Shown here piece by piece: positions 3,814-12,528 of a stretch of 64,000 nt of DNA. Every line of letters begins with the position of its first letter. The stretch's first letter is position 1. The notes below the pieces were generated by a model. It worked only from the letters and a program-made list of their open reading frames with translations. It was not told the DNA's origin and ran no database searches. This stretch comes from a virus: IMG/VR virus record IMGVR_UViG_3300009164_000039. One strand, 5' to 3'. The translations under genes were made by a program, and so were the position numbers.

Positions 3814-4371
3814 TTAGGCAGTGTACCGGTAGTTGACCATGATTCCCCAGCTTTCTTGCTGGCGAATATCGCTGGTGTCTGCATCAAAGTTCACTGCATG
3901 CAGGCTAGCACCGTTGCCTAAATGGAACTTGGCCACAGGATCTTTGCGTGATGCAATGAACTCTCGCACTTGTTCTTCTGTAGGAGGTGCATCAAAATGC
4001 TTGCGCAGACTAGGTACAGGGCTCAATGTGTAGAAGTTTTGCACACCTTGTGCGCTGAAATGTCCCACAGCTTCTTTCAATGCTCTAGCACCCACACCCA
4101 ACAAGGCATCAGGTAGTCGAAAGATTGTGTAAAACATGGCAGTGAGACCTTCATCTTTGCTGTCCACAAAGATACCTTTCATGCTTTGCACTAGATCGTC
4201 ACCCACACGTGTGCAAATCATGCATTGATTTTTATCTTCTTCTTCATACATCAGCACAGTGCGTGTGCCCACAGTACGTGTTTCCTTATCAATAGTTGGA
4301 TGCACAGGGTCATGTGCAATTAGCTCTAACCAAGAGCGATCAAATTTTTCAGAGTTGGATGGAATAATCAT
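3814..4371 (-). CDS. Malonyl-CoA decarboxylase catalytic (C-terminal, GNAT-fold) domain, stand-alone
   Basis: Motifs AMFYTI, FYTLSPVP and DPVAKFHLGNGASLHAVNFDAD...WGIMVNYRY match MCD signatures. The start at 4371 follows an AAGGA SD and a TAAATA promoter; the ORF-track start at 4413 overlaps a terminator. Confidence 0.85.
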   Translation of the reverse strand: MIIPSNSEKFDRSWLELIAHDPVHPTIDKETRTVGTRTVLMYEEEDKNQCMICTRVGDDLVQSMKGIFVDSKDEGLTAMFYTIFRLPDALLGVGARALKEAVGHFSAQGVQNFYTLSPVPSLRKHFDAPPTEEQVREFIASRKDPVAKFHLGNGASLHAVNFDADTSDIRQQESWGIMVNYRYTA

Positions 4372-4413
4372 GGCATTTCCTTGAGGCATTATATGCGTAT
4401 TTATTACGGCCAT

Positions 4414-4433
4414 AAAAAAAGGACCGAAGTCCT
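4414..4433 (-). terminator. Intrinsic terminator ending the tRNA cluster
   Basis: AGGAC-TTCG-GTCCT hairpin followed by a T tract. Confidence 0.85.
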
Positions 4434-4441
4434 GGCTATAG

Positions 4442-4517
4442 TGGTCTCTCTGAGCTGAGTTGAACAGCTATCTAAACTTTAGGAGAGTCTTGTTCTATCC
4501 TATTGAACTACAGAGAG
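4442..4517 (-). tRNA. tRNA-Arg(CCU)
   Basis: Cloverleaf, loop CT-CCT-AA, encoded CCA. Confidence 0.9.
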
Positions 4518-4522
4518 TATGT

Positions 4523-4614
4523 TGGCGGAAGACGGAGGAGTCGAACCCCATCCCTGTTAAGAGAACCTGGTTTTCAAGGCCAGTCGCAGGACCAACCCCG
4601 CTGCATCATCTTCC
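4523..4614 (-). tRNA. tRNA-Ser(UGA)
   Basis: Cloverleaf with long variable arm, loop CT-TGA-AA, CCA. Confidence 0.9.
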
Positions 4615-4620
4615 ATTGAT

Positions 4621-4694
4621 TGGCGTACCCCCAGAGACTCGAACTCCGACGAACAGTTTTGGAGACTGCTATGCTGCCATTACATTAGGGATAC
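4621..4694 (-). tRNA. tRNA-Trp(CCA)
   Basis: Loop CT-CCA-AA, TTCGA T-loop, CCA. Confidence 0.92.
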
Positions 4695-4699
4695 ATTAT

Positions 4700-4775
4700 T
4701 GGTTGCGGGACTTGGATTTGAACCAAGGATGGCAAAGGCTTATGAGACCTCGCTGGTGACCGGACCCTTCCCGCG
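4700..4775 (-). tRNA. tRNA-Met(CAU), probably initiator-type
   Basis: Loop CT-CAT-AA; C1:A72 mismatch typical of fMet; anticodon stem lacks the full 3 G-C pairs. Confidence 0.85.
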
Positions 4776-4783
4776 ATAGATTC

Positions 4784-4857
4784 TATACTGAAACACACTC
4801 ACCCGAATGGACATATCCTGAGTTCCGCCTGCTGTCGGAAGTGTGTTTTAGTATAGT
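4784..4857 (-). ncRNA. Hairpin-closed small RNA module of unknown function
   Basis: 17-bp terminal inverted repeat ctatactgaaacacact / agtgtgttttagtatag with ~40 nt interior; boundaries approximate. Confidence 0.5.
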
Positions 4858-5742
4858 GGAGGACTGAGAATACATCTCTCCCATAAGCACCTCAAGCATT
4901 ATTACTAGCCTTGCGAGCCAGCTTTCTCTTGACTTCCACTAGGGTCCTTGCGGATCTCCCAGTCTGCTTACAGCATCGCCGTTTTTAACGTCAGGCAGTA
5001 GACGTGTCATCATATGCTATTCTGCGGATTCCATTCCGTTAGCCTTGCGAGCTATTCAGGTGCGCTAACACCTTACGAACCCCCCTCCACAAACTAATGT
5101 CACCTTGCGAGCTTCATTAGACTTGATTCACTTGCGTGTCAAGTATTAGATACTTTTCACATATGACCGAGGCAGTCTTTGCGTTTTTGTAATGATAGTC
5201 AGGATTTGAACCCGACTGCATCCAGCTTAAAAGGCTAGCGTTCAACCATTGAACTTTATCAACCTACCGTGATGAGCTACCTCTGTTGCTACATAATCTT
5301 TTGGACTACATAATACAACTCACCACATACCTTTCCTCTTGCGGAGTAATCAGTGATGTTTCACGACCAGTGTCCTGCATTGCTACAGTCCACCACCCAT
5401 TAACATTGCACACGAGCCCTTGGGTGCAAACCCTCGAACCAATGCACTACCCTTTCTCATACCAGCTGACTGATTGGTTTTGTTGGGAAGTCAGCACCAC
5501 CTGTTACTTTTCATGCACCCTGGTTCCCTTGCAGGCCAGTCGACGCACATTCTTTCCCCAACATCAGCTTTGCTGTTACAACCACCGGTCTTATCAGTGA
5601 TCGCTACCTCGCGATAGTGAGCAGGCTTGTTTACATGAACCATTGCTGGCGCAGGAGTGTAGGACTCATCTGCTTTGGGTGGGTCACCCCACTTATTCTT
5701 CGTACACTAGCAAGCTAGCATACAGGACAATAAACTGCCCCG
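4857..5742 (-). ncRNA. Large ornate structured RNA, GOLLD-like
   Basis: ~0.9 kb with no credible sense ORF; six C-GCAA-G hairpin loops (4910, 4947, 5044, 5104, 5131, 5338) plus further GNRA loops; inside a phage tRNA cluster; own consensus promoter; embedded tRNA-like domain. Family assignment is by resemblance, not a covariance-model search. Confidence 0.7.
5193..5261 (-). tRNA. tRNA-Lys(UUU)-like domain embedded in the GOLLD-like RNA (no CCA)
   Basis: D arm gttc/gaac, anticodon arm ctagc-CTTTTAA-gctgg, T arm tcggg-TTCAAAT-cctga, short acceptor tgata/tatca, no 3' CCA. Confidence 0.75.
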
Positions 5743-5805
5743 AAATCTTTATGCAATTGAACACTGTATGCACATTTGTATAAAGACTTGTTAACCTAAG
5801 CATCT

Positions 5806-5834
5806 ATTATAAGACACTTTTTATTTGTTGTCAA
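5806..5834 (-). promoter_or_regulatory. Sigma70-type promoter for the GOLLD-like RNA
   Basis: TTGACA-17 bp-TATAAT, perfect consensus. Confidence 0.88.
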
Positions 5835-5865
5835 TATATTTTGAGCAAAGTCCTAAAAATACATT

Positions 5866-5941
5866 TGGTAGGGCCACCCGGACTCGAACCGGGAACTGGC
5901 AGATTAAAAGTCTGCTGTGATAACCATTTCACCATAACCCC
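5866..5941 (-). tRNA. tRNA-Lys(UUU)
   Basis: Loop CT-TTT-AA, CCA. Confidence 0.93.
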
Positions 5942-5946
5942 GTATA

Positions 5947-6022
5947 TGGTCCCTGCGGCCGGAATCGAACCGGCAACCTTCTGATTAAGAGTCAGTTGCG
6001 CTACCTATTGCGCCACACAGGG
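5947..6022 (-). tRNA. tRNA-Lys(CUU)
   Basis: Loop CT-CTT-AA, CCA. Confidence 0.93.
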
Positions 6023-6083
6023 TTGTTCGTAATTTTTTGATTTTACGTGCCAACCCTAGACCAATACGGGATCTAGAGCGACA

Positions 6084-6104
6084 CTAGAGTTTACCTCGTT
6101 TCAT
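6084..6104 (-). CDS. Putative mini leader ORF MKRGKL followed by a hairpin
   Basis: GGAG SD (6111-6114), ATG AAA CGA GGT AAA CTC TAG, then a tgtcg/tggca + ctagatc/ggtctag stem. Confidence 0.45.
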   Translation of the reverse strand: MKRGKL

Positions 6105-6132
6105 GTCATTCTCCTTTGAATTAAAAACTTAC

Positions 6133-6206
6133 TGGTGCTCAAGTACAGAATCGAACTGTTGACTGCTCCTTACCATGGAGCCGTTATACCACTTAACTAC
6201 AAGAGC
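6133..6206 (-). tRNA. tRNA-Thr(GGU)
   Basis: gctcc-ATGGTAA-ggagc; unusual A32; CCA. Confidence 0.88.
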
Positions 6207-6207
6207 T

Positions 6208-6283
6208 TGGTGGAAGTGGTGAGACTCGAACTCACGATAGACACCGTATGAAGGTGGCGCATTAGCCGCTATGCTACACTTCC
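6208..6283 (-). tRNA. tRNA with CAU anticodon (elongator Met or Ile2)
   Basis: Loop TT-CAT-AC, CCA. Confidence 0.88.
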
Positions 6284-6287
6284 AGAC

Positions 6288-6365
6288 TGGAGCAACGGAC
6301 AGGATTTGAACCTGTGGTTTTCGGGATTTGCAATCCCGTGCATTGGGCCACTCTGCCACCGTTGC
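6288..6365 (-). tRNA. tRNA-Cys(GCA)
   Basis: cggga-TTGCAAA-tcccg, discriminator U, CCA. Confidence 0.92.
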
Positions 6366-6371
6366 ATTTGT

Positions 6372-6447
6372 TGGAGCGGGCGATCGGGTTCGAACCGACG
6401 ACATTTACCTTGGCAAGGTAATGCTCTACCAACTGAGCTACGCCCGC
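6372..6447 (-). tRNA. tRNA-Gly(GCC)
   Basis: ttacc-TTGCCAA-ggtaa, CCA. Confidence 0.95.
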
Positions 6448-6452
6448 ATAAA

Positions 6453-6655
6453 TTAGTGCCTAGCTACTCACACCACATGAGCCCTAGACTGAGCAGTTTA
6501 CTCTGTCTCACGTTACTGTCGTTTGGTCCAGCTATCGTCAACCCGAGATATTTTCCGTACTCCTGAGATGAAGTCGTGTGGTAAGATCTCGCGCACCAAG
6601 TCCGTCGTTATGGCAAGGGACCACTCGCCCACTTTAATAACCGTAAAGTGTAACG
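6453..6655 (-). ncRNA. ~200-nt structured non-tRNA RNA (possibly manA-motif-like)
   Basis: Long-range pairing tggtgc/gcacta and cttaccaca/tgtggtgtgag closes a multistem domain, with extra 5' hairpins. Family name is a recollection-level guess. Confidence 0.5.
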
Positions 6656-6662
6656 GAGTTTT

Positions 6663-6738
6663 TGGCTCCACAGGGTGGGCTCGAACCACCGACCAAATGA
6701 TTAACAGTCATCTACTCTACCGACTGAGCTACTGCGGA
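6663..6738 (-). tRNA. tRNA-Asn(GUU)
   Basis: Loop CT-GTT-AA, CCA. Confidence 0.95.
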
Positions 6739-6745
6739 ATAAACT

Positions 6746-6835
6746 TGGCGGAACGAAAGAGACTCGAACTCTTAAACCGGGATTAACCGATCGACGGTTT
6801 AGCAAACCGCTCCAATACCATTATGGGACCGTTCC
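6746..6835 (-). tRNA. tRNA-Ser(GCU)
   Basis: Loop TT-GCT-AA, long variable arm, CCA. Confidence 0.92.
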
Positions 6836-6845
6836 TTGTATTACT

Positions 6846-6874
6846 ATTATATAGCAACTGTGCATGCATGTCAA
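6846..6874 (-). promoter_or_regulatory. Sigma70-type promoter internal to the tRNA cluster
   Basis: TTGACA-17 bp-TATAAT, perfect consensus. Confidence 0.88.
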
Positions 6875-6882
6875 CTATATTC

Positions 6883-6958
6883 TGGTGTTTCCTAGTGGGC
6901 TTGAACCACTGACCTTTAGGATGTCGACCTAGTGCTCTACCAGCTGAGCTAAGGAAAC
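6883..6958 (-). tRNA. tRNA-Val(GAC)
   Basis: Loop TC-GAC-AT (non-canonical C33), CCA. Confidence 0.85.
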
Positions 6959-6959
6959 C

Positions 6960-7038
6960 TGGTACCCTGTCTCTGATTCGAACAGAGAGAACTCTTCCTT
7001 TTGAGAGAAGCGACTTTACCTAATTTGTCCAACAGGGC
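6960..7038 (-). tRNA. tRNA-Leu(CAA)
   Basis: cttct-CTCAAAA-ggaag, short variable region, CCA. Confidence 0.87.
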
Positions 7039-7044
7039 ATTGTG

Positions 7045-7120
7045 TGGTACCAAGAGTTGGACTCGAACCAACCACACCTAGTGCTTCAAACTAGTGCTCT
7101 ACCTGATGAGCTATCTTGGC
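7045..7120 (-). tRNA. tRNA-Phe(GAA)
   Basis: ctagt-TTGAAGC-actag, CCA. Confidence 0.92.
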
Positions 7121-7127
7121 ATTATCT

Positions 7128-7186
7128 TAGGGACGCCGGCTCAGCTTGGTCGTTTAAGACACGCAGGACATCTGCGTGGCTCCCTA
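7128..7186 (-). ncRNA. Small three-way RNA with TCTTAAACGACCAAGC core (copy 1; possibly Acido-Lenti-1-like)
   Basis: Closing stem tagggagcc/ggcgtcccta, hairpin cacgcag/ctgcgtg; core shared with the 8009-8069 element. Confidence 0.6.
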
Positions 7187-7192
7187 TAAAAT

Positions 7193-7267
7193 TGGGTTGA
7201 GGTACGAGGATCGAACTCGTGATAGCGGAATCACAACCCGCGGTTTTGCCACTAAACTAACCTCAAC
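7193..7267 (-). tRNA. tRNA-His(GUG)
   Basis: Loop TT-GTG-AT, encoded G-1 opposite C73, CCA. Confidence 0.93.
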
Positions 7268-7273
7268 ATTGTC

Positions 7274-7348
7274 TGGCCGGTCCTGCAGGAATCGAACCCA
7301 CACCGCTTGGTTCGAAGCCAAGCATTCTATCCATTGAACTAAGGACCG
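7274..7348 (-). tRNA. tRNA-Arg(UCG)
   Basis: cttgg-CTTCGAA-ccaag, CCA. Confidence 0.93.
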
Positions 7349-7355
7349 AATATGT

Positions 7356-7429
7356 TGGCACGGGAACTAGGGATCGAACCTAGGACGACAGAGTCAAAGT
7401 CTGTTGTGTTACCTCTACACCATTCCCGA
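7356..7429 (-). tRNA. tRNA-Gln(UUG)
   Basis: acaga-CTTTGAC-tctgt, CCA. Confidence 0.92.
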
Positions 7430-7436
7430 ACAGATC

Positions 7437-7513
7437 TGGTGCGACCAGAGAGATTCGAACTCCCCACCCCAACGTTCGTAGCGTTGTACTCTATCCAAAT
7501 GAGCTATGGTCGC
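7437..7513 (-). tRNA. tRNA-Arg(ACG)
   Basis: caacg-CTACGAA-cgttg, CCA. Confidence 0.93.
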
Positions 7514-7520
7514 ATAATTA

Positions 7521-7570
7521 GTGCTAGATTGTTTACTGCACAACCTAGCAAAGCAGGGGTCTGTAAACTG
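7521..7570 (-). ncRNA. Compact putative H-type pseudoknot RNA
   Basis: P1 gttta/taaac plus ctgc/gcag; loop tgctagg complementary to 3' tail tctagca. Confidence 0.45.
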
Positions 7571-7614
7571 CATATAACTTATCACATTGTACTCCATATG
7601 CAAGGGAGAGTGCT

Positions 7615-7689
7615 TGGTATCCTGCACGGGTATCGATCCCGTTCCTACACCTTGAAAGGGTATTGATCTAGCCAGTAATCTAGCAGGAT
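7615..7689 (-). tRNA. tRNA-Glu(UUC), atypical copy
   Basis: atacc-CTTTCAA-ggtgt; T-loop reads ATCGATA (A at 54); CCA. Confidence 0.8.
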
Positions 7690-7698
7690 GTATTGAAT

Positions 7699-7918
7699 TT
7701 GAGAGCCTACGCCGCATTTATCGTAGATTTATTCAGGACTTACCGGCCGCCTAGCCTGACCTCGAGCACGATGGATATCACTTGGGATCCGTCCAGCGTA
7801 GTCTCCTTTACAGACCTCCGCAGTTGCCCGCGGGTGGGAGTTGAACCCATTTGCCTTTTACTGTTTTGGTCCTTCGAAGAAACCTCATTAGCGTGACTGT
7901 ACTTGCTGACACTCTCAA
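7699..7918 (-). ncRNA. ~220-nt stem-closed RNA containing a T-arm mimic
   Basis: Terminal IR tttgagag/ctctcaaa; internal tggg-TTCAACT-ccca T-arm; no anticodon/CCA architecture. Confidence 0.45.
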
Positions 7919-7922
7919 AACT

Positions 7923-7996
7923 TGGTGGAGGACCAGGGTATTGAACCCTTGTAGTCAGTATGCTTGCAAGGCAAACCCGCCGCCCTCGGCTCCCCC
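7923..7996 (-). tRNA. tRNA-Ala(UGC), atypical copy with degenerate D arm
   Basis: Loop CT-TGC-AA, G3:U70 Ala identity pair, CCA; D arm poorly paired. Confidence 0.75.
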
Positions 7997-8008
7997 CATT
8001 GTACTATC

Positions 8009-8069
8009 TACAGGACACCCCTATGGGCTTGGTTGTTTAAGAGTACGCCTACCCAGCGACTCTCCTCTA
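8009..8069 (-). ncRNA. Small three-way RNA with TCTTAAACAACCAAGC core (copy 2)
   Basis: Hairpin agagtcgc/gcgtactct, core, short ccc/ggg hairpin, closing agga/tcct. Confidence 0.55.
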
Positions 8070-8074
8070 AAACT

Positions 8075-8150
8075 TGGCGCCTCGTAGGGGACTCGAACCC
8101 CTGACATCCGACTAGACAGGCCGGCACTCTACCAACTGAGTTAACGAAGC
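8075..8150 (-). tRNA. tRNA-Asp(GUC)
   Basis: ccggc-CTGTCTA-gtcgg, CCA. Confidence 0.92.
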
Positions 8151-8157
8151 AGAAAGA

Positions 8158-8231
8158 TGGAGCGGGGTAGGAGAATCGAACTCCTCGCTTTAGCTTGGAA
8201 GGCTAAGGTATTACCACTATACGAACCCCGC
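8158..8231 (-). tRNA. tRNA-Gly(UCC)
   Basis: ttagc-CTTCCAA-gctaa, CCA. Confidence 0.94.
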
Positions 8232-8239
8232 ATAGATTT

Positions 8240-8315
8240 TGGTGGAGGATACAGGGATCGAACCTGCGACCTATTGCTTGCAAAGCAACCGCTCTCCCAA
8301 CTGAGCTAATCCCCC
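8240..8315 (-). tRNA. tRNA-Ala(UGC), canonical copy
   Basis: Loop TT-TGC-AA, G3:U70, CCA. Confidence 0.95.
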
Positions 8316-8322
8316 AATGACA

Positions 8323-8399
8323 TGGTCGGAGTACAAGGATTCGAACCTTGGACCCCCTGGTCCCAAACCAGGTGCGCTACCAGACTGCGCCACACTCCG
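8323..8399 (-). tRNA. tRNA-Pro(UGG)
   Basis: cctgg-TTTGGGA-ccagg, CCA. Confidence 0.95.
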
Positions 8400-8404
8400 A
8401 TGAT

Positions 8405-8480
8405 TGGTGCCCCCTGTCCGACTCGAACAGACCACCTTCTGATTACAAAACAGATGCTCTACCTGATGAGCTAAGAGGGC
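8405..8480 (-). tRNA. tRNA-Thr(UGU)
   Basis: Loop TT-TGT-AA, CCA. Confidence 0.92.
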
Positions 8481-8487
8481 AAAAACT

Positions 8488-8562
8488 TGGTGCGAGATGA
8501 GAGTGTCGAACTCCCGACCCTCTGAATGTAAATCAGATGCTCTACCGCTGAGCTAATCTCGC
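8488..8562 (-). tRNA. tRNA-Val(UAC)
   Basis: tctga-TTTACAT-tcaga, CCA. Confidence 0.92.
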
Positions 8563-8588
8563 AAATTAATTTTGTATTTTATTTAACA

Positions 8589-8663
8589 TGGTTGCCATGG
8601 ACAGTTTCGAAATGTCGACCTATCGGTTATCAACCGATTGCTCTTCCTCTGAGCTACACGGCA
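8589..8663 (-). tRNA. tRNA-Ile(GAU)
   Basis: atcgg-TTGATAA-ccgat, CCA. Confidence 0.92.
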
Positions 8664-8669
8664 AAAATG

Positions 8670-8744
8670 TGGTACTGGGCACGGGAATCGAACCCGTCTT
8701 ACAAACGTGAAAGGCTTGTGTCCTAACCGATAGACGAGCCCAGC
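8670..8744 (-). tRNA. tRNA-Glu(UUC), canonical copy
   Basis: caagc-CTTTCAC-gtttg, TTCGA T-loop, CCA. Confidence 0.92.
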
Positions 8745-8751
8745 ATACAAA

Positions 8752-8838
8752 TGGTGGAGACGGTAGGAATCGAACCTACGGTGTTTCTGATGTCACTGAT
8801 TTACAGTCAGCTGCCTTCGCCGCTCGGCACACATCTCC
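8752..8838 (-). tRNA. tRNA-Tyr(GUA)
   Basis: gctga-CTGTAAA-tcagt, long variable arm, CCA. Confidence 0.93.
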
Positions 8839-8840
8839 AT

Positions 8841-8931
8841 ATAGGAACACACTACCAGTCCCGAGGATTCGAACCTCTTTCTCTTATAGTTTACCACGAC
8901 TTTTGCAGTCAGGCAAGCAATGTGTTTTTAT
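8841..8931 (-). ncRNA. Stem-closed RNA module with a T-arm mimic
   Basis: Terminal IR around aacaca/tgtgtt; internal gagg-TTCGAAT-cctc. Confidence 0.45.
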
Positions 8932-8932
8932 A

Positions 8933-9009
8933 TGGTGCCCCAGAGGAGACTCGAACTCCTAAAATTTGGCTTCTAAGACCAACACGTATACCAATTCCGT
9001 CACCGGGGC
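8933..9009 (-). tRNA. tRNA-Leu(UAG)
   Basis: ttggt-CTTAGAA-gccaa, short variable region, CCA. Confidence 0.9.
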
Positions 9010-9099
9010 AATTTGTCACAACAGATTGTTAAGGAACCATGTTCGTCTGCATGACTATGCAGTTGTTATTAGCAACACGATGTTTGCTACAGTTCCACA

Positions 9100-9127
9100 A
9101 GTATAACATCTTTTTCATTGTTGTCTA
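9100..9127 (-). promoter_or_regulatory. Possible sigma70-type promoter
   Basis: TAGACA-16 bp-TATACT. Confidence 0.45.
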
Positions 9128-9161
9128 CTAGTTTGTAAAAATATTTTTCTTCTGTTGTTTT

Positions 9162-9240
9162 TATGCACTCTAGTTGTTGCGTCCACAACCTGCCGCCTGC
9201 CGAGTCATGGTCGGGTGGGCTTGGCCTTCTAGAGTGTATA
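9162..9240 (-). ncRNA. Hairpin-closed small RNA module
   Basis: 12-bp terminal IR tatgcactctag/ctagagtgtata; interior contains AGGCGG; boundaries approximate. Confidence 0.45.
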
Positions 9241-9304
9241 GTAAAGTGTTCTACACGGATACGTACCCGCCTTTCGCCTCGCGGCTAGAGAACACTTTAC
9301 TATA
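9237..9304 (-). ncRNA. Hairpin-closed small RNA module
   Basis: Perfect 16-bp terminal IR tatagtaaagtgttct/agaacactttactata; interior contains AGGCGG. Confidence 0.5.
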
Positions 9305-9425
9305 ACTGGATTTTACACATCTGCGTTGTCGCCACAGACTTATCATCCCCAGTCCCGCCCTCATTATAGCCGATGTTTTGAGTGCCGGCAGGGTCGCGTT
9401 CCCTATACACACTTTTCATGATCCT

Positions 9426-9462
9426 AAAAACAAAAAACCCCAGGGTGTTAAGCCTAGGGTCC
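9426..9462 (-). terminator. Attenuator terminator upstream of the main tRNA operon
   Basis: accctagg-cttaacac-cctggggt followed by TTTTTGTTTTT; the 5' arm is also complementary to the leader ORF 3' end. Confidence 0.85.
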
Positions 9463-9488
9463 TTGGAGTTTGCAGTTGTTAATTTGTG

Positions 9489-9626
9489 TTAACTGTGCAT
9501 GGTCTCCTGGACCCTTGATTCCTGTGGTGTGCGATCATTACTAATCTCAGTCGCAGACCAGCTGGCCATTGGCAATGAATAGCCTAGGTTATGCTGTTTG
9601 CTAAAGAGTGAGAATGATTTACACAT
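9489..9626 (-). CDS. 45-aa attenuator leader peptide (MCKSFSLFSKQHNLGYSLPMASWSATEISNDRTPQESRVQETMHS)
   Basis: Manual translation; AAGGA SD upstream; lies between a consensus promoter and a terminator; its 3' end forms the antiterminator. Confidence 0.72.
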   Translation of the reverse strand: MCKSFSLFSKQHNLGYSLPMASWSATEISNDRTPQESRVQETMHS

Positions 9627-9674
9627 TTTGTTTACTTTTCCTTTTTTACAGGCTGCTTTTGCAACCTATGTCGT

Positions 9675-9703
9675 ATTGTATATTTATTTAGTCCTGCTGT
9701 CAA
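9675..9703 (-). promoter_or_regulatory. Sigma70-type promoter with an embedded CTAAATA late-promoter core
   Basis: TTGACA-17 bp-TACAAT; spacer gcaggaCTAAATAaata. Confidence 0.82.
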
Positions 9704-9754
9704 CCAGCTTTGGAATATTTAGTTTTTTGTTGTAAAAATACAACAAATTGAATT

Positions 9755-9853
9755 TGGTGCCCTTGGCAGGAGTCGAACCTGCACACTGTGGCTTATCTAG
9801 CCACTGCTTTGGCGAGGTATAAGCTCGCTTCTTTACCATTAAGCTACAAGGGC
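9755..9853 (-). tRNA. tRNA-Ile(UAU) with a large extra arm (99 nt)
   Basis: gcgag-CTTATAC-ctcgc; ~28-nt variable region with gtggct/agccac hairpin; TTCGA T-loop; CCA. Confidence 0.82.
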
Positions 9854-9858
9854 ATGAT

Positions 9859-9942
9859 TGGTGCGACTGGCCGGACTCGAACCGGCATGCCGTGAAGCGG
9901 GAGATTTTAAGTCTCCTGAGTATACCATTTCTCCACAGTCGC
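9859..9942 (-). tRNA. tRNA-Leu(UAA)
   Basis: ggaga-CTTAAAA-tctcc, variable arm, CCA. Confidence 0.93.
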
Positions 9943-9962
9943 ATTAGAGCACGTTGATCAGA

Positions 9963-10007
9963 TCAACGTATTCGTAATCGTATGCTGTGGAGAGCCTTGT
10001 AGTTCAT
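9963..10007 (-). CDS. Putative leaderless 14-aa mini-ORF MNYKALHSIRLRIR
   Basis: ATG 7 nt below a -10 box; ends ATA CGA TTA CGA ATA CGT TGA; stop lies inside a 9-bp inverted repeat (9951-9969). Confidence 0.5.
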   Translation of the reverse strand: MNYKALHSIRLRIR

Positions 10008-10013
10008 GTGTGT

Positions 10014-10041
10014 ATAATAGCTTGAATGTTTATTTATGTCA
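10014..10041 (-). promoter_or_regulatory. Sigma70-type promoter with overlapping ATAAATA
   Basis: TTGACA-16 bp-TATTAT. Confidence 0.65.
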
Positions 10042-10050
10042 AGCAAAAAT

Positions 10051-10839
10051 TTATGGCTTGACAACCAAAAATCCAGCGATAGCAGGGATCACTCGATTGC
10101 GTCGAGGTTGGCTGGCCATGGTGGTCATGCTGGTTTGTACTACAAATCCCACTTGTTCTACATGTGCTTGCACTTGATCTGTGCAGGTGTACAAAAATAT
10201 ATGATCATGCGATGCGGCATTGATAGCCGCACTAACAAATGCTGTACCACCCGGCCGTAGCACACGATGCAGTTGTGTCAAGAACTGTACCGGATCCTCC
10301 ACATGCTCTAGCACTTCAACACACACCAACCAATCAGTACTGGCATCCGGTGTTTGTTCTATGCTTTGCACTGTTGCCTGGTACCTAGTGGGGTTCAGTG
10401 CAGATGCAAACTCAACTGAAGCAGGACTGATGTCAATTGCATGTCCTTGTATGTTAGACCATGTTTGCAAGATCTTCCAAGAGTATGCGCCAGATCCGAC
10501 CCCAACATCTAAAAACTCAGTAGCATCAGCCATCTGTTGCACAAATTGATCTTGGAAAAAGCAAAGCTGACGATACTGGTGCGGCCATAGCCAGTGTGAT
10601 AACAACAGTCCGGGCAAGTACTCTGTCATCATGTGTTCTTTGTTTAGGTACACTGCGTCACTGACCTGTTGGTGAGTACGATTGCGATACTGTCCGGTGC
10701 GGTTGAATTCAATTTGGTACTTGATTAGTCTAGTACAAAAATTACGATAGGCAACTTGATAGGACACAGGAAAGCAATCAAATTCTTGTTTCCAAGAATC
10801 ACCAAACAGCCGATATGCTTGATCTTGATGGGAGATCAT
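10051..10839 (-). CDS. Class I SAM-dependent methyltransferase
   Basis: FLDVGVGSG motif I; EVLEHVEDP...LHRVLRPGG. Confidence 0.88.
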   Translation of the reverse strand: MISHQDQAYRLFGDSWKQEFDCFPVSYQVAYRNFCTRLIKYQIEFNRTGQYRNRTHQQVSDAVYLNKEHMMTEYLPGLLLSHWLWPHQYRQLCFFQDQFVQQMADATEFLDVGVGSGAYSWKILQTWSNIQGHAIDISPASVEFASALNPTRYQATVQSIEQTPDASTDWLVCVEVLEHVEDPVQFLTQLHRVLRPGGTAFVSAAINAASHDHIFLYTCTDQVQAHVEQVGFVVQTSMTTMASQPRRNRVIPAIAGFLVVKP

Positions 10840-11327
10840 TTAACAAAGTCCACCATTAGTATCACACGTTCGCTTGATGATTTATTAGCAGCCTGGTGTT
10901 TTTTCCTATCATCAAACAACATCATCTGCCCTTCTTCCCAATAGTAGCAGGTGTTTTTTACTTGTATAAATGCGTTGCCAGGGCAGATCAGTCCCAGATG
11001 CGATCTCCACACATTATCAGTGTAGCCTCTATGTGGATGAATCACACAGTCTGGTTCCATGATAGAAAATCCTGCTAGGTACAGGCCCGGAATGTCTTTG
11101 ATTAGTTCTCGGGTGACAGGACAATTATCCCATCCTGCTTGTTTCTGGTATTGATGTACAAGAAAATACAAGCGCCAACGCTCGTTGTGCAGTTCTTTCA
11201 TGTGCCAGAGTTCTGCTTGTTCTCTGTAGAGTAAAAACTCATCACGGATTGCTTGCCAGTTGTCTTGCAACGGCTTGAGGAACGGGTAAGCATCAATTGA
11301 TTGAAACACAGGAAGTTGATCTCTCAT
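10836..11327 (-). CDS. Aspartyl/asparaginyl beta-hydroxylase family 2OG-Fe(II) dioxygenase (LpxO-like)
   Basis: AGFSIMEPDCVIHPHRGY, RSHLGLICP, W.EG...LFDD...H.A.N.S..ERVILMVDF. Confidence 0.88.
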   Translation of the reverse strand: MRDQLPVFQSIDAYPFLKPLQDNWQAIRDEFLLYREQAELWHMKELHNERWRLYFLVHQYQKQAGWDNCPVTRELIKDIPGLYLAGFSIMEPDCVIHPHRGYTDNVWRSHLGLICPGNAFIQVKNTCYYWEEGQMMLFDDRKKHQAANKSSSERVILMVDFVK

Positions 11328-11349
11328 ACAAGTATATATGCTGAGGTAT

Positions 11350-11424
11350 TGGTCCGGCGCACAGGAATCGAACCCGTATTCTAGAGGTAGAAGCTCTATG
11401 TATTATCCGTTATACGAACGCCAG
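11350..11424 (-). tRNA. tRNA-Arg(UCU)
   Basis: tagag-CTTCTAC-ctcta, CCA. Confidence 0.92.
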
Positions 11425-11429
11425 TTGTT

Positions 11430-11504
11430 TGGTGGGCTGACTTGGAATTGAACCAAGACTCAATGAATTATGAGTTCACTGCTTTACCATTAAGCTATCA
11501 GCCC
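11430..11504 (-). tRNA. tRNA with CAU anticodon (Ile2 or Met)
   Basis: gtgaa-CTCATAA-ttcat, CCA. Confidence 0.9.
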
Positions 11505-11512
11505 GTTGAACT

Positions 11513-11541
11513 ATTGTATGTTAATTTATCTTTTGTGTCAA
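11513..11541 (-). promoter_or_regulatory. Sigma70-type promoter for the tRNA(CAU)-tRNA-Arg-hydroxylase-methyltransferase unit
   Basis: TTGACA-17 bp-TACAAT. Confidence 0.8.
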
Positions 11542-12287
11542 TCTTCAACTGAATAGTAGTCTTTGTCCAACCAAGCATGCACGATATCTTCTTGTCTTAG
11601 ATATCCGTAGCTGTTGACACTGGCTATACAGTTGTCGTTGATCAGGCCTTGGTCAGCCAGGTGCTGCCAATTGGTAGTTCGTGGATCTAAAAAGTTTTCT
11701 GAGTTTTTATAAACTGCGGCATAGATCCAAGGATTTTCTCTGCGCTTGTAGAAATAGGCATCACGACAATCAAACCCATTGATGGCCAACATGTACATTA
11801 GGTTGCCGTATGTGTAGTTGTAGTAGCATCCATTCATGGTGCGATGCACTAGTCTGTTGTGATGATAGTTTATCTGCTGTGGAATAGTTAAAATCATCAT
11901 ACCATTCACATTCATTTGCTGGTTCCACAATTTAAGTGTGCTCAATGGATTGATTGCGTACTGGAACGCATCGTGGCACCAAAGAACATCCACAGGCTTG
12001 GGCAACAATGCAGTTTCAAAATCGCCTTTGATCACTGTGACATTTTCCGGCAAGTCTACTACCAGTCGATTGGTATCTATATCCACAGCATAACAATCAA
12101 AATTATAGGGCTCAAATGGGTCTTCTTTGTTGGTTAGTGTAGCCCACCAATTGATATCCAAGCCACCACCACAGCCCAGGTCTGCCACAGTGGTAACAGA
12201 TTCTAGAAAATCATCATAACCGTACAACAGATCTAGCACATAACTGGAATGTTCGTGACTGTGGTACGGGTTTCTAAACTGTTCCAT
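11538..12287 (-). CDS. Class I SAM-dependent methyltransferase
   Basis: VADLGCGGG motif I; YAVDID; DVLWCHDAFQY. Confidence 0.85.
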   Translation of the reverse strand: MEQFRNPYHSHEHSSYVLDLLYGYDDFLESVTTVADLGCGGGLDINWWATLTNKEDPFEPYNFDCYAVDIDTNRLVVDLPENVTVIKGDFETALLPKPVDVLWCHDAFQYAINPLSTLKLWNQQMNVNGMMILTIPQQINYHHNRLVHRTMNGCYYNYTYGNLMYMLAINGFDCRDAYFYKRRENPWIYAAVYKNSENFLDPRTTNWQHLADQGLINDNCIASVNSYGYLRQEDIVHAWLDKDYYSVED

Positions 12288-12528
12288 GCTTCAAAATTTC
12301 CAAAATAAGTTTTGTTTTCAGGTGGTCAAGACGTGATTCAAGTTGGTGGCAAGCTTCTGCTATTTCTAACTCGCTGCCCCATGACCGTTGTGTGGCCAGA
12401 TGAGTGGCCCAACGAGCCACTTCATCTTTTTCCATTTGTACTTCGGCTGCATTACCTTTGGGCTGTGCTCGTACACAAAGATTAAATTCTTCAATAAGAT
12501 GATCAGCTTGTTCACGCCAGTCAATCAT
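12274..12528 (-). CDS. Hypothetical protein (84 aa)
   Basis: Overlaps both neighbours in operon fashion. Confidence 0.7.
   Translation of the reverse strand: MIDWREQADHLIEEFNLCVRAQPKGNAAEVQMEKDEVARWATHLATQRSWGSELEIAEACHQLESRLDHLKTKLILEILKHGTV

Follow-up and report, generated by a model that had tools for sequence, protein, structure and literature searches.

A conserved short open reading frame ahead of tRNA-Leu(UAA) and tRNA(UAU) in a phage tRNA island: a possible sensor of codon supply

The tRNA island and its mini-ORF

The DNA analysed here (64,000 nucleotides of IMG/VR record IMGVR_UViG_3300009164_000039, referred to below as the window) belongs to the large genome of a lake-water tailed phage, has a GC content of ~46% and encodes a T4-type large terminase, a tail sheath and a RecA-like protein. 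The isolates nearest to it are PA5oct-like jumbo phages, which are distant (29% identity for a structural protein), and blastn against isolate phages returned matches at the tRNAs only. ARAGORN called 32 tRNA genes, all on the minus strand (Table 1). These include tRNA-Arg(UCG) and tRNA-Arg(ACG), both of which a preliminary description of the sequence had placed in the array.

Further RNAs are interspersed in the island. A GOLLD RNA with an embedded tRNA-like match lies among the tRNA genes, downstream of a perfect TTGACA-17-TATAAT promoter. The 385-nt gap between tRNA-Asp and tRNA-Glu is devoid of a notable ORF, carries the T-arm-like motifs GGTTCAATACCCTGG and GGGTTCAACTCCCACCC, and is probably occupied by one or more structured RNAs, tRNA-like or otherwise. 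A sub-threshold tRNA-Sec match with no ARAGORN call sits between tRNA-Arg(CCU) and tRNA-Trp. Between tRNA-Arg(UCU) and the cassette described below are two protein-coding genes, one for an Asp/Arg-hydroxylase-family protein and one for a class I SAM methyltransferase.

The cassette opens with a near-consensus sigma-70 promoter matching at 11 of 12 positions, with a spacer measured at 17 nt and not 16 nt as first described. The window has nine promoters with at least 11 of 12 matches, all but one on the gene strand, against a chance expectation that we roughly estimate at ~0.85. An ATG at 10007 follows 6 nt past the -10 hexamer, its A being the seventh nucleotide after that hexamer. These 6 nt leave no room for a Shine-Dalgarno sequence, and the ORF is predicted to be leaderless; since ~60% of the phage's genes carry a Shine-Dalgarno motif, the host may initiate poorly on leaderless transcripts. 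The mini-ORF encodes MNYKALHSIRLRIR and ends in TGA. Its six final sense codons are ATA CGA TTA CGA ATA CGT, as had been reported, and enclose a 12-nt core, CGATTACGAATA, that reads CGA UUA CGA AUA. The phage itself uses ATA, TTA and CGA sparingly, at 8.5, 7.4 and 3.6 per 1000 codons. Of the 16,231 codons counted across the long ORFs of the window these three account for 1.95%, whereas in the mini-ORF they take five of the 13 post-start codons, which bears out the enrichment in rare codons claimed earlier. The same block doubles as a tandem hexamer, with WTACGA occurring three times. From promoter to tRNA-Leu(UAA) the leader spans 65 nt, and the whole cassette is compact (~100 nt).

Downstream lie tRNA-Leu(UAA), whose cloverleaf shows covariation across homologs, and a 99-nt tRNA with a 29-nt variable region. 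ARAGORN labelled the latter Glu(ctc), a call we overruled because the anticodon stem GCGAG/CTCGC encloses the loop CTTATAC, which makes the anticodon UAU; its homologs are called Ile(tat) by the same program. The two genes following the mini-ORF are thus readers of TTA and ATA, as the preliminary description had it, and neither decodes CGA.

The variable arm of tRNA(UAU) has features of its own. Its stem covaries among variants (CAGGC/GCCUG, CCGGC/GCCGG, GUGGC/GCCAC, CAA/UUG and others; L141-L173 and L174-L193) and closes a 7-nt loop, UAGAUAA in the window and YAGAUAA in 11 of 12 variants from ~50 loci. We take this loop to be a close likeness of the anticodon loop CUGAUAA of the major tRNA-Ile(GAU), and the arm may imitate an anticodon arm and so recruit IleRS to a tRNA whose anticodon is UAU. 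Alternatively, by analogy with the nematode V-arm tRNA-Ile(UAU), which is leucylated in vitro (PMC3333845, PMC4300185), the phage tRNA(UAU) may not accept Ile.

Among the other promoters of the island, those at 11541 and 6874 abut their tRNAs, and the one at 9127 has a leader with no ORF comparable to the mini-ORF. A different arrangement is found ~300 nt downstream of the cassette, where a promoter precedes a Shine-Dalgarno-led 45-codon ORF in which all 20 amino acids are represented, followed by a strong hairpin and U-tract intrinsic terminator before the main tRNA block. This unit resembles the cassette in its location in the tRNA island, its promoter type and its small ORF ahead of tRNA genes; it differs by its Shine-Dalgarno sequence, its full set of amino acids and its canonical terminator, whereas the mini-ORF is predicted to be leaderless, would be codon-specific and has no terminator. 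The presence of such a unit nearby makes translation-coupled control of the tRNA island plausible.

Table 1. Positions of the cassette and of other features of the tRNA island in the window
Feature	Position	Strand	Basis or remark
tRNA genes (32)	4442-11504	minus (all)	ARAGORN
tRNA-Sec-like match	4527-4614	minus	RF01852, 36.6 bits, below gathering score of 47
GOLLD RNA	4861-5326	minus	RF02032, 201 bits
tRNA-like match in GOLLD RNA	5190-5263		
Promoter upstream of GOLLD RNA	5834-5806		perfect match
tRNA-Arg(UCG)	7274-7348	minus	ARAGORN
tRNA-Arg(ACG)	7437-7513	minus	ARAGORN
Gap between tRNA-Asp and tRNA-Glu	7690-8075	minus	385 nt
45-codon ORF unit, whole	9433-9703		
Intrinsic terminator of 45-codon unit	9464-9433	minus	hairpin and U tract
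45-codon ORF	9626-9489	minus	Shine-Dalgarno-led
Promoter of 45-codon ORF	9703-9675	minus	
tRNA(UAU), 99 nt	9853-9755	minus	ARAGORN; Rfam RF00005 at 9758-9853, 58.2 bits (threshold 29)
tRNA-Leu(UAA)	9942-9859	minus	ARAGORN; Rfam RF00005 at 9862-9942, 56.7 bits (threshold 29)
Helix P1, 3' strand (tRNA-Leu nt 5-13)	9938-9930	minus	predicted fold
Leader 3' end, helix P2 partner of core codons	9943-9949	minus	predicted fold
Apex hairpin with stop codon inside	9950-9970	minus	ViennaRNA; includes 9-bp inverted repeat
Inverted repeat ACGTTGATC / GATCAACGT	9969-9951	minus	
Stop codon TGA	9965-9963	minus	inside inverted repeat
12-nt core (CGA UUA CGA AUA)	9969-9980	minus	100% identity
Leader strand UCUCCACAG	9985-9993	minus	predicted P1 partner of tRNA-Leu nt 5-13
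Mini-ORF with stop	10007-9963	minus	predicted leaderless
-10 hexamer TATTAT	10019-10014	minus	promoter scan
-35 hexamer TTGACA	10042-10037	minus	promoter scan
Hydroxylase-family and methyltransferase genes	10051-11327	minus	

Conservation of the cassette among viral contigs

Relatives were collected by means of the terminase, a 17-mer from the anticodon arm of tRNA(UAU) and three DNA patterns. The cassette, comprising promoter, 6 nt, ATG, ORF, hairpin, tRNA-Leu(UAA) and tRNA-Ile(UAU), was present in 10 further distinct viral contigs (L144, L179, L174, L176, L177, L178, L182, L180 with the identical L183, L184 and L185, and L193). The family is small (10-11 sequences), and L193 is its sole deeply divergent member. 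The -10 hexamer reads TATTAT, TATAGT, TAATAT or TATACT among the homologs, with a promoter spacer identity of 87%, and in all members it is followed after exactly 6 nt by ATGAAC. The ORF is open from the +1 AUG in each case, running over 14 codons in the homologs and 15 in L193. Its 12-nt core was 100% identical in all nine sequences compared, some family members having been recovered by patterns that themselves include the core, as against ~60% identity at third codon positions of the neighbouring gene and 85% for tRNA-Leu. This difference points to constraint on nucleotides or codons and not merely on the peptide, and with all three codon positions invariant, constraint at the codon level fits better than constraint on the peptide.

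The sequence upstream of the core is more variable. Most members share 84% identity in this 5' part of the ORF, while L193 is 58% identical to the others and its stretch from ATGAAC to the core differs in length by exactly 3 nt, which keeps the reading frame. L193 (MNTPFYIGRLRISSL) carries one further in-frame ATA and one further TTA at non-homologous positions; each mini-ORF holds two ATA and one TTA as cognate codons (two and two in L193), with two or three CGA. Codons 5 and 6 encode Ala or Gly and Leu, Phe or His, respectively. A functional peptide was judged unlikely, given this non-synonymous variation and the fact that L193 shares only MN...RLRI. The stop codon is TGA, TAA or TAG and falls inside the apex hairpin in every member. 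The preliminary description had named homologs lacking both the frame and the rare codons as grounds for dropping its proposal; those found here retain the AUG at +1, the reading frame, the AUA, UUA and CGA codons, and a hairpin that spans the stop.

The recurrence of this arrangement in 10 contigs, its codon enrichment and its promoter match indicate more than chance, and the element is real, conserved and non-random. We give very little weight to the idea of a plain pre-tRNA leader that has no function and looks conserved through the close kinship of the contigs. The small size of the family and the high identity of most members in the 5' part of the ORF would suit it, but it accounts neither for a core that is invariant while neutral sites have diverged nor for the retention of AUG, frame, core, stop-in-hairpin and predicted leader:tRNA pairing by the divergent L193.

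A nascent peptide could also be at work. The peptide contains R10-L11-R12 in all copies, followed by I-R in most, and this Arg/Lys-X-Arg/Lys (+X+) pattern is documented, with ErmDL, as a drug-dependent arrest sequence (PMC8298421, PMC12583479). The ribosome would then stall through its exit tunnel independently of tRNA supply, possibly in response to a small molecule. We regard this as very improbable, since the RLR codons show no synonymous variation despite ~40% divergence at nearby neutral sites, the known motif requires a tunnel-bound macrolide or ketolide, and the mini-ORF is followed by tRNA genes instead of a resistance gene whose ribosome-binding site is sequestered.

The cassette also has a well-defined upstream border. 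The homology that L144 shares with the window sets in precisely at the -35 hexamer, and in the relatives (L144, L174-L193) the place of the window's hydroxylase-family and methyltransferase genes is taken by a conserved gene for a 160-aa protein of unknown function, P0108. The last two codons of this gene (Leu-Thr) constitute the -35 hexamer and its stop TAA comes next, so that gene and promoter overlap in TTGACATAA. The promoter boundary is a recombination joint. A search independent of the leader was made with the P0108-family protein, and the best 80 loci were examined. Among these, L198, L200-L202, L209, L210, L212, L213 and L215-L217 carry the cassette, in each case together with the Leu(UAA)-Ile(UAU) tandem; the sequence of L222 (= L178) ends within tRNA-Leu. 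Eight of the 80 (L199, L203-L208 and L214, the last being the L062 region) have a different tRNA-Leu(UAA), beginning GCGAGUAUGG as against GCGACUGUGG in the cassette, placed 9-45 nt after the upstream gene and accompanied by no promoter, leader or adjacent Ile(UAU). Nearly all of the remaining loci have no tRNA downstream within the sequence examined. As the cassette was seen only with the tandem among these 80 loci, cassette and tRNA pair travel together, and the cassette, its tRNA-Leu variant and tRNA(UAU) behave as one exchangeable module.

Other searches extended the family no further. The window's methyltransferase had no relative in the viral contigs; a protein search gave matches of 83-92% identity, on short contigs, and a metagenome scan found 38-51% identical homologs, mostly cellular and without tRNAs, with the exception of L056, whose contig ends before the region. 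An exact 29-mer of the mini-ORF had no match in viral contigs, and nhmmer with a leader profile retrieved neither more divergent copies in the loci examined nor a second copy in the window. A scan of genome contigs for the host gave 55 matches, all judged to be due to chance, and hence no host clue.

The stop-codon hairpin and predicted pairing with tRNA-Leu

The end of the mini-ORF lies in a 9-bp inverted repeat with the stop codon inside, as first noticed in the preliminary description. A 1-nt loop is impossible; ViennaRNA folds the apex hairpin with nine pairs and a 3-nt loop. Among the homologs this hairpin occurs in three unrelated sequence versions, namely the ACGUUGAUC type, ACGAAUAC/GUAUUCGU and AUCAUC/GAUGAU, and within these types compensatory G-C to A-U and G-C to G-U changes were observed. 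By our rough estimate, the chance of an in-frame stop in the hairpin in three independent versions is below 1%. The apex hairpin is well supported. It is not a plain intrinsic terminator, in line with what had been noted at the outset: a U tract is absent after the hairpin here and in every homolog, and no terminator-like site was called between 10007 and 9943. A cmscan search against Rfam (4000-12500, E up to 1) gave only tRNA matches across 9755-10042, with no T-box or other cis-regulatory family.

The three hairpin versions bear on the proposal that the block acts as DNA, with the tandem hexamers or the apex palindrome binding a transcription factor, or with sigma-70-dependent promoter-proximal pausing tuning tRNA transcription. 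The invariant block is indeed close to a strong promoter, the promoter spacer is conserved as well, and the hexamers at +25 to +42 (TACGAT, TACGAA, TACGTT) resemble a -10 element, TACGAT possessing its A2 and T6; the tandem block is presumably similar to the lambda PR' pause element. The apex palindromes, on the other hand, are completely different among the three types and so do not form one operator, the conservation of ORF and stop is left unexplained, and no candidate regulator was identified. We consider action at the DNA level improbable.

Folding of the leader together with the first 25 nt of tRNA-Leu predicted one and the same extended stem in six of six members, with z from -2.7 to -4.7. 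In this predicted architecture the apex hairpin is followed by helix P2, in which the core codons pair with the 3' end of the leader, and by helix P1, in which codons 5-8 (CCACAG) pair with CUGUGG at tRNA nt 5-12; pairing of CUAC with GUAG of the tRNA-Leu D loop is often added. For the full leader plus tRNA, the nearest-neighbour model puts the extended stem 1-8 kcal/mol ahead of the combination of hairpin and cloverleaf. The leader and tRNA 5' end of L193 differ from those of the other members, yet a 16-bp helix of its own is predicted (p=0.007 versus shuffles), and the L193 leader pairs best, by far, with its own tRNA. Elsewhere the support is lower: the leader:tRNA duplex p-values of five members range from 0.06 to 0.29, the window leader ranks its own tRNA-Leu third of 32 tRNA 5' ends with two unrelated tRNAs equal or better, and covariation on P1 (83% of cells paired) was indistinguishable from shuffled partners. 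RNAalifold on a MAFFT alignment recovered the tRNA cloverleaf alone, as the three types of hairpin cannot be aligned with one another. With P1 equal to its shuffled control and other tRNA 5' ends giving similar energies, we do not treat a leader:tRNA trap as established; it is a hypothesis to which these predictions lend moderate support at best, and outside L193 the case for the tRNA part of the predicted stem is weak.

A leader that is structured and untranslated has to be weighed seriously at this point. The stem would then be an element for pre-tRNA processing, stability or folding, for example a substrate of or obstacle to RNase III, RNase E or RNase P, with CGAUUACGAAUA as the site for an RNA-binding protein or RNA, and the ORF would be incidental. 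Persistence of the hairpin through three sequence versions, the long stem predicted in every member, a core that is conserved at all three codon positions as a nucleic-acid motif would be and that consists of tandem hexamers, and the impossibility of a Shine-Dalgarno sequence in front of the AUG all speak for such a leader. It leaves unexplained, however, why the distance from the -10 hexamer to the AUG is fixed in all members including L193, why the one indel preserves the frame, why an in-frame stop recurs in all three hairpins and varies only between TGA, TAA and TAG, why L193 has extra in-frame ATA and TTA codons, and why the motif codons match the two tRNAs that follow. A core that stays unchanged while its pairing partners differ among the three types would also be unusual for a purely structural element. 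We hold an untranslated structured leader to be possible but rather unlikely.

A codon-sensor reading and its relation to known systems

Our preferred reading, to which we assign slightly less than an even chance, is that the cassette senses, through translation of a leaderless ORF, the codons of its own operon and in this way controls how the pre-tRNA is folded or processed. Here the conserved leader would act as a regulatory 5' element heading a two-tRNA unit of tRNA-Leu(UAA) and the long-arm tRNA(UAU). The transcript would start at the A of the AUG, and a 70S ribosome would initiate on the 14-codon ORF without a leader. CGA-UUA-CGA-AUA and a further AUA would make its transit dependent on tRNAs supplied by the unit itself, with CGA as an additional slow or rare codon. 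The apex hairpin would cap a longer stem that joins the leader to its own 3' end and to the initial 13-22 nt of tRNA-Leu. A ribosome covers ~12 nt behind and 15 nt ahead of its P site, and one that has codons 9-13 in the A site would sit over the P1 strand, the 5' arm of the hairpin or both. Held on these hungry codons, the ribosome would keep the stem open, so that the tRNA-Leu cloverleaf folds and RNase P reaches its cleavage site. After fast transit and release the stem would re-form before the 3' acceptor strand is made, leaving the precursor trapped or occluded; as this strand is made ~70 nt after the 5' strand, a free leader would win kinetically. The net outcome would be negative feedback on tRNA supply. 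The start site, the translation of the ORF, the leader:tRNA trap and the direction of control are parts of this scheme that we infer.

The more specific version, a kinetic folding switch in which the stalled ribosome blocks trapping of the nascent 5' half of tRNA-Leu and maturation rises when the isoacceptors are scarce, we advance only tentatively and think it rather doubtful. The same guarded standing applies to its corollaries, that sensing would be specific for isoacceptors and not for the amino acid, and that the output would be pre-tRNA folding and RNase P access with no terminator. One objection is that it is not obvious how a trap on tRNA-Leu would act on the tRNA(UAU) that follows. 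The preliminary description had proposed a codon-specific sensor of the cognate tRNAs. Preservation of AUG, frame, codons and hairpin in the homologs speaks in its favour; CGA is left out, being read by neither downstream tRNA, and the stem is not backed by the controls outside L193.

We compared the cassette with known systems. The attenuators of amino-acid operons (trpL, hisL, leuL, pheL, thrL, ilvL) and pheM-pheST likewise have a 5' short ORF with cognate regulatory codons and an RNA structure overlapping the ORF end; in these attenuators the position of the ribosome decides the fold, as it would in the cassette. They employ an intrinsic terminator, whereas the cassette has neither terminator nor U tract and its ORF is predicted to be leaderless. 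They sense one amino acid, whereas the cassette would sense the codons or isoacceptors for AUA, UUA and CGA; and in the cassette the regulated products would be tRNAs, with pre-tRNA folding or processing as the proposed output. Leaderless short polycysteine ORFs of mycobacteria are attenuators that make downstream expression respond to the supply of charged tRNA (10.1101/834739). They share with the cassette a short ORF with a 5'-AUG at the head of a polycistronic transcript, leaderless status being only predicted in the cassette. The polycysteine type consists of single-amino-acid runs ahead of protein-coding genes in Actinobacteria, unlike the alternating rare CGA, UUA and AUA codons ahead of phage tRNA genes.

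In Streptomyces, the abundance of the bldA tRNA-Leu(UAA) controls target genes that contain TTA. Both bldA and the cassette put the rare UUA codon and a single cognate tRNA to regulatory use; the bldA tRNA acts on its target genes, whereas the UUA codons of the cassette would feed back on tRNA production. The +X+ leaders of the ErmDL type (PMC8298421) are similar in having R-L-R in a short peptide with a hairpin next, but there drug-dependent arrest exposes a ribosome-binding site, while the cassette offers no hint of a drug, is conserved at the codon level and is followed by tRNAs. T-box riboswitches are also cis-acting leaders that read tRNA status to control translation-related genes; they bind the tRNA directly without a ribosome, and the cassette leader has no T-box match in Rfam. 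Our literature searches found no control of tRNA genes by a leader ORF or leader peptide. By its sequence, the cassette looks like leader-peptide-type control that lacks the defining terminator, for which we found no published precedent.

Little is known about the means by which phages set the dosage of the tRNAs they encode. If the sensor reading is true, ribosome-mediated sensing can be specific for codons and isoacceptors, can act on a non-coding product and can work by letting a leader stem compete with a tRNA cloverleaf, no terminator being needed. The cassette is portable and, if confirmed, would be a natural part for building sensors of codon supply. Together with the adjacent attenuator covering all amino acids, it suggests that this phage lineage monitors the translation state of its host at several levels to set its tRNA output.
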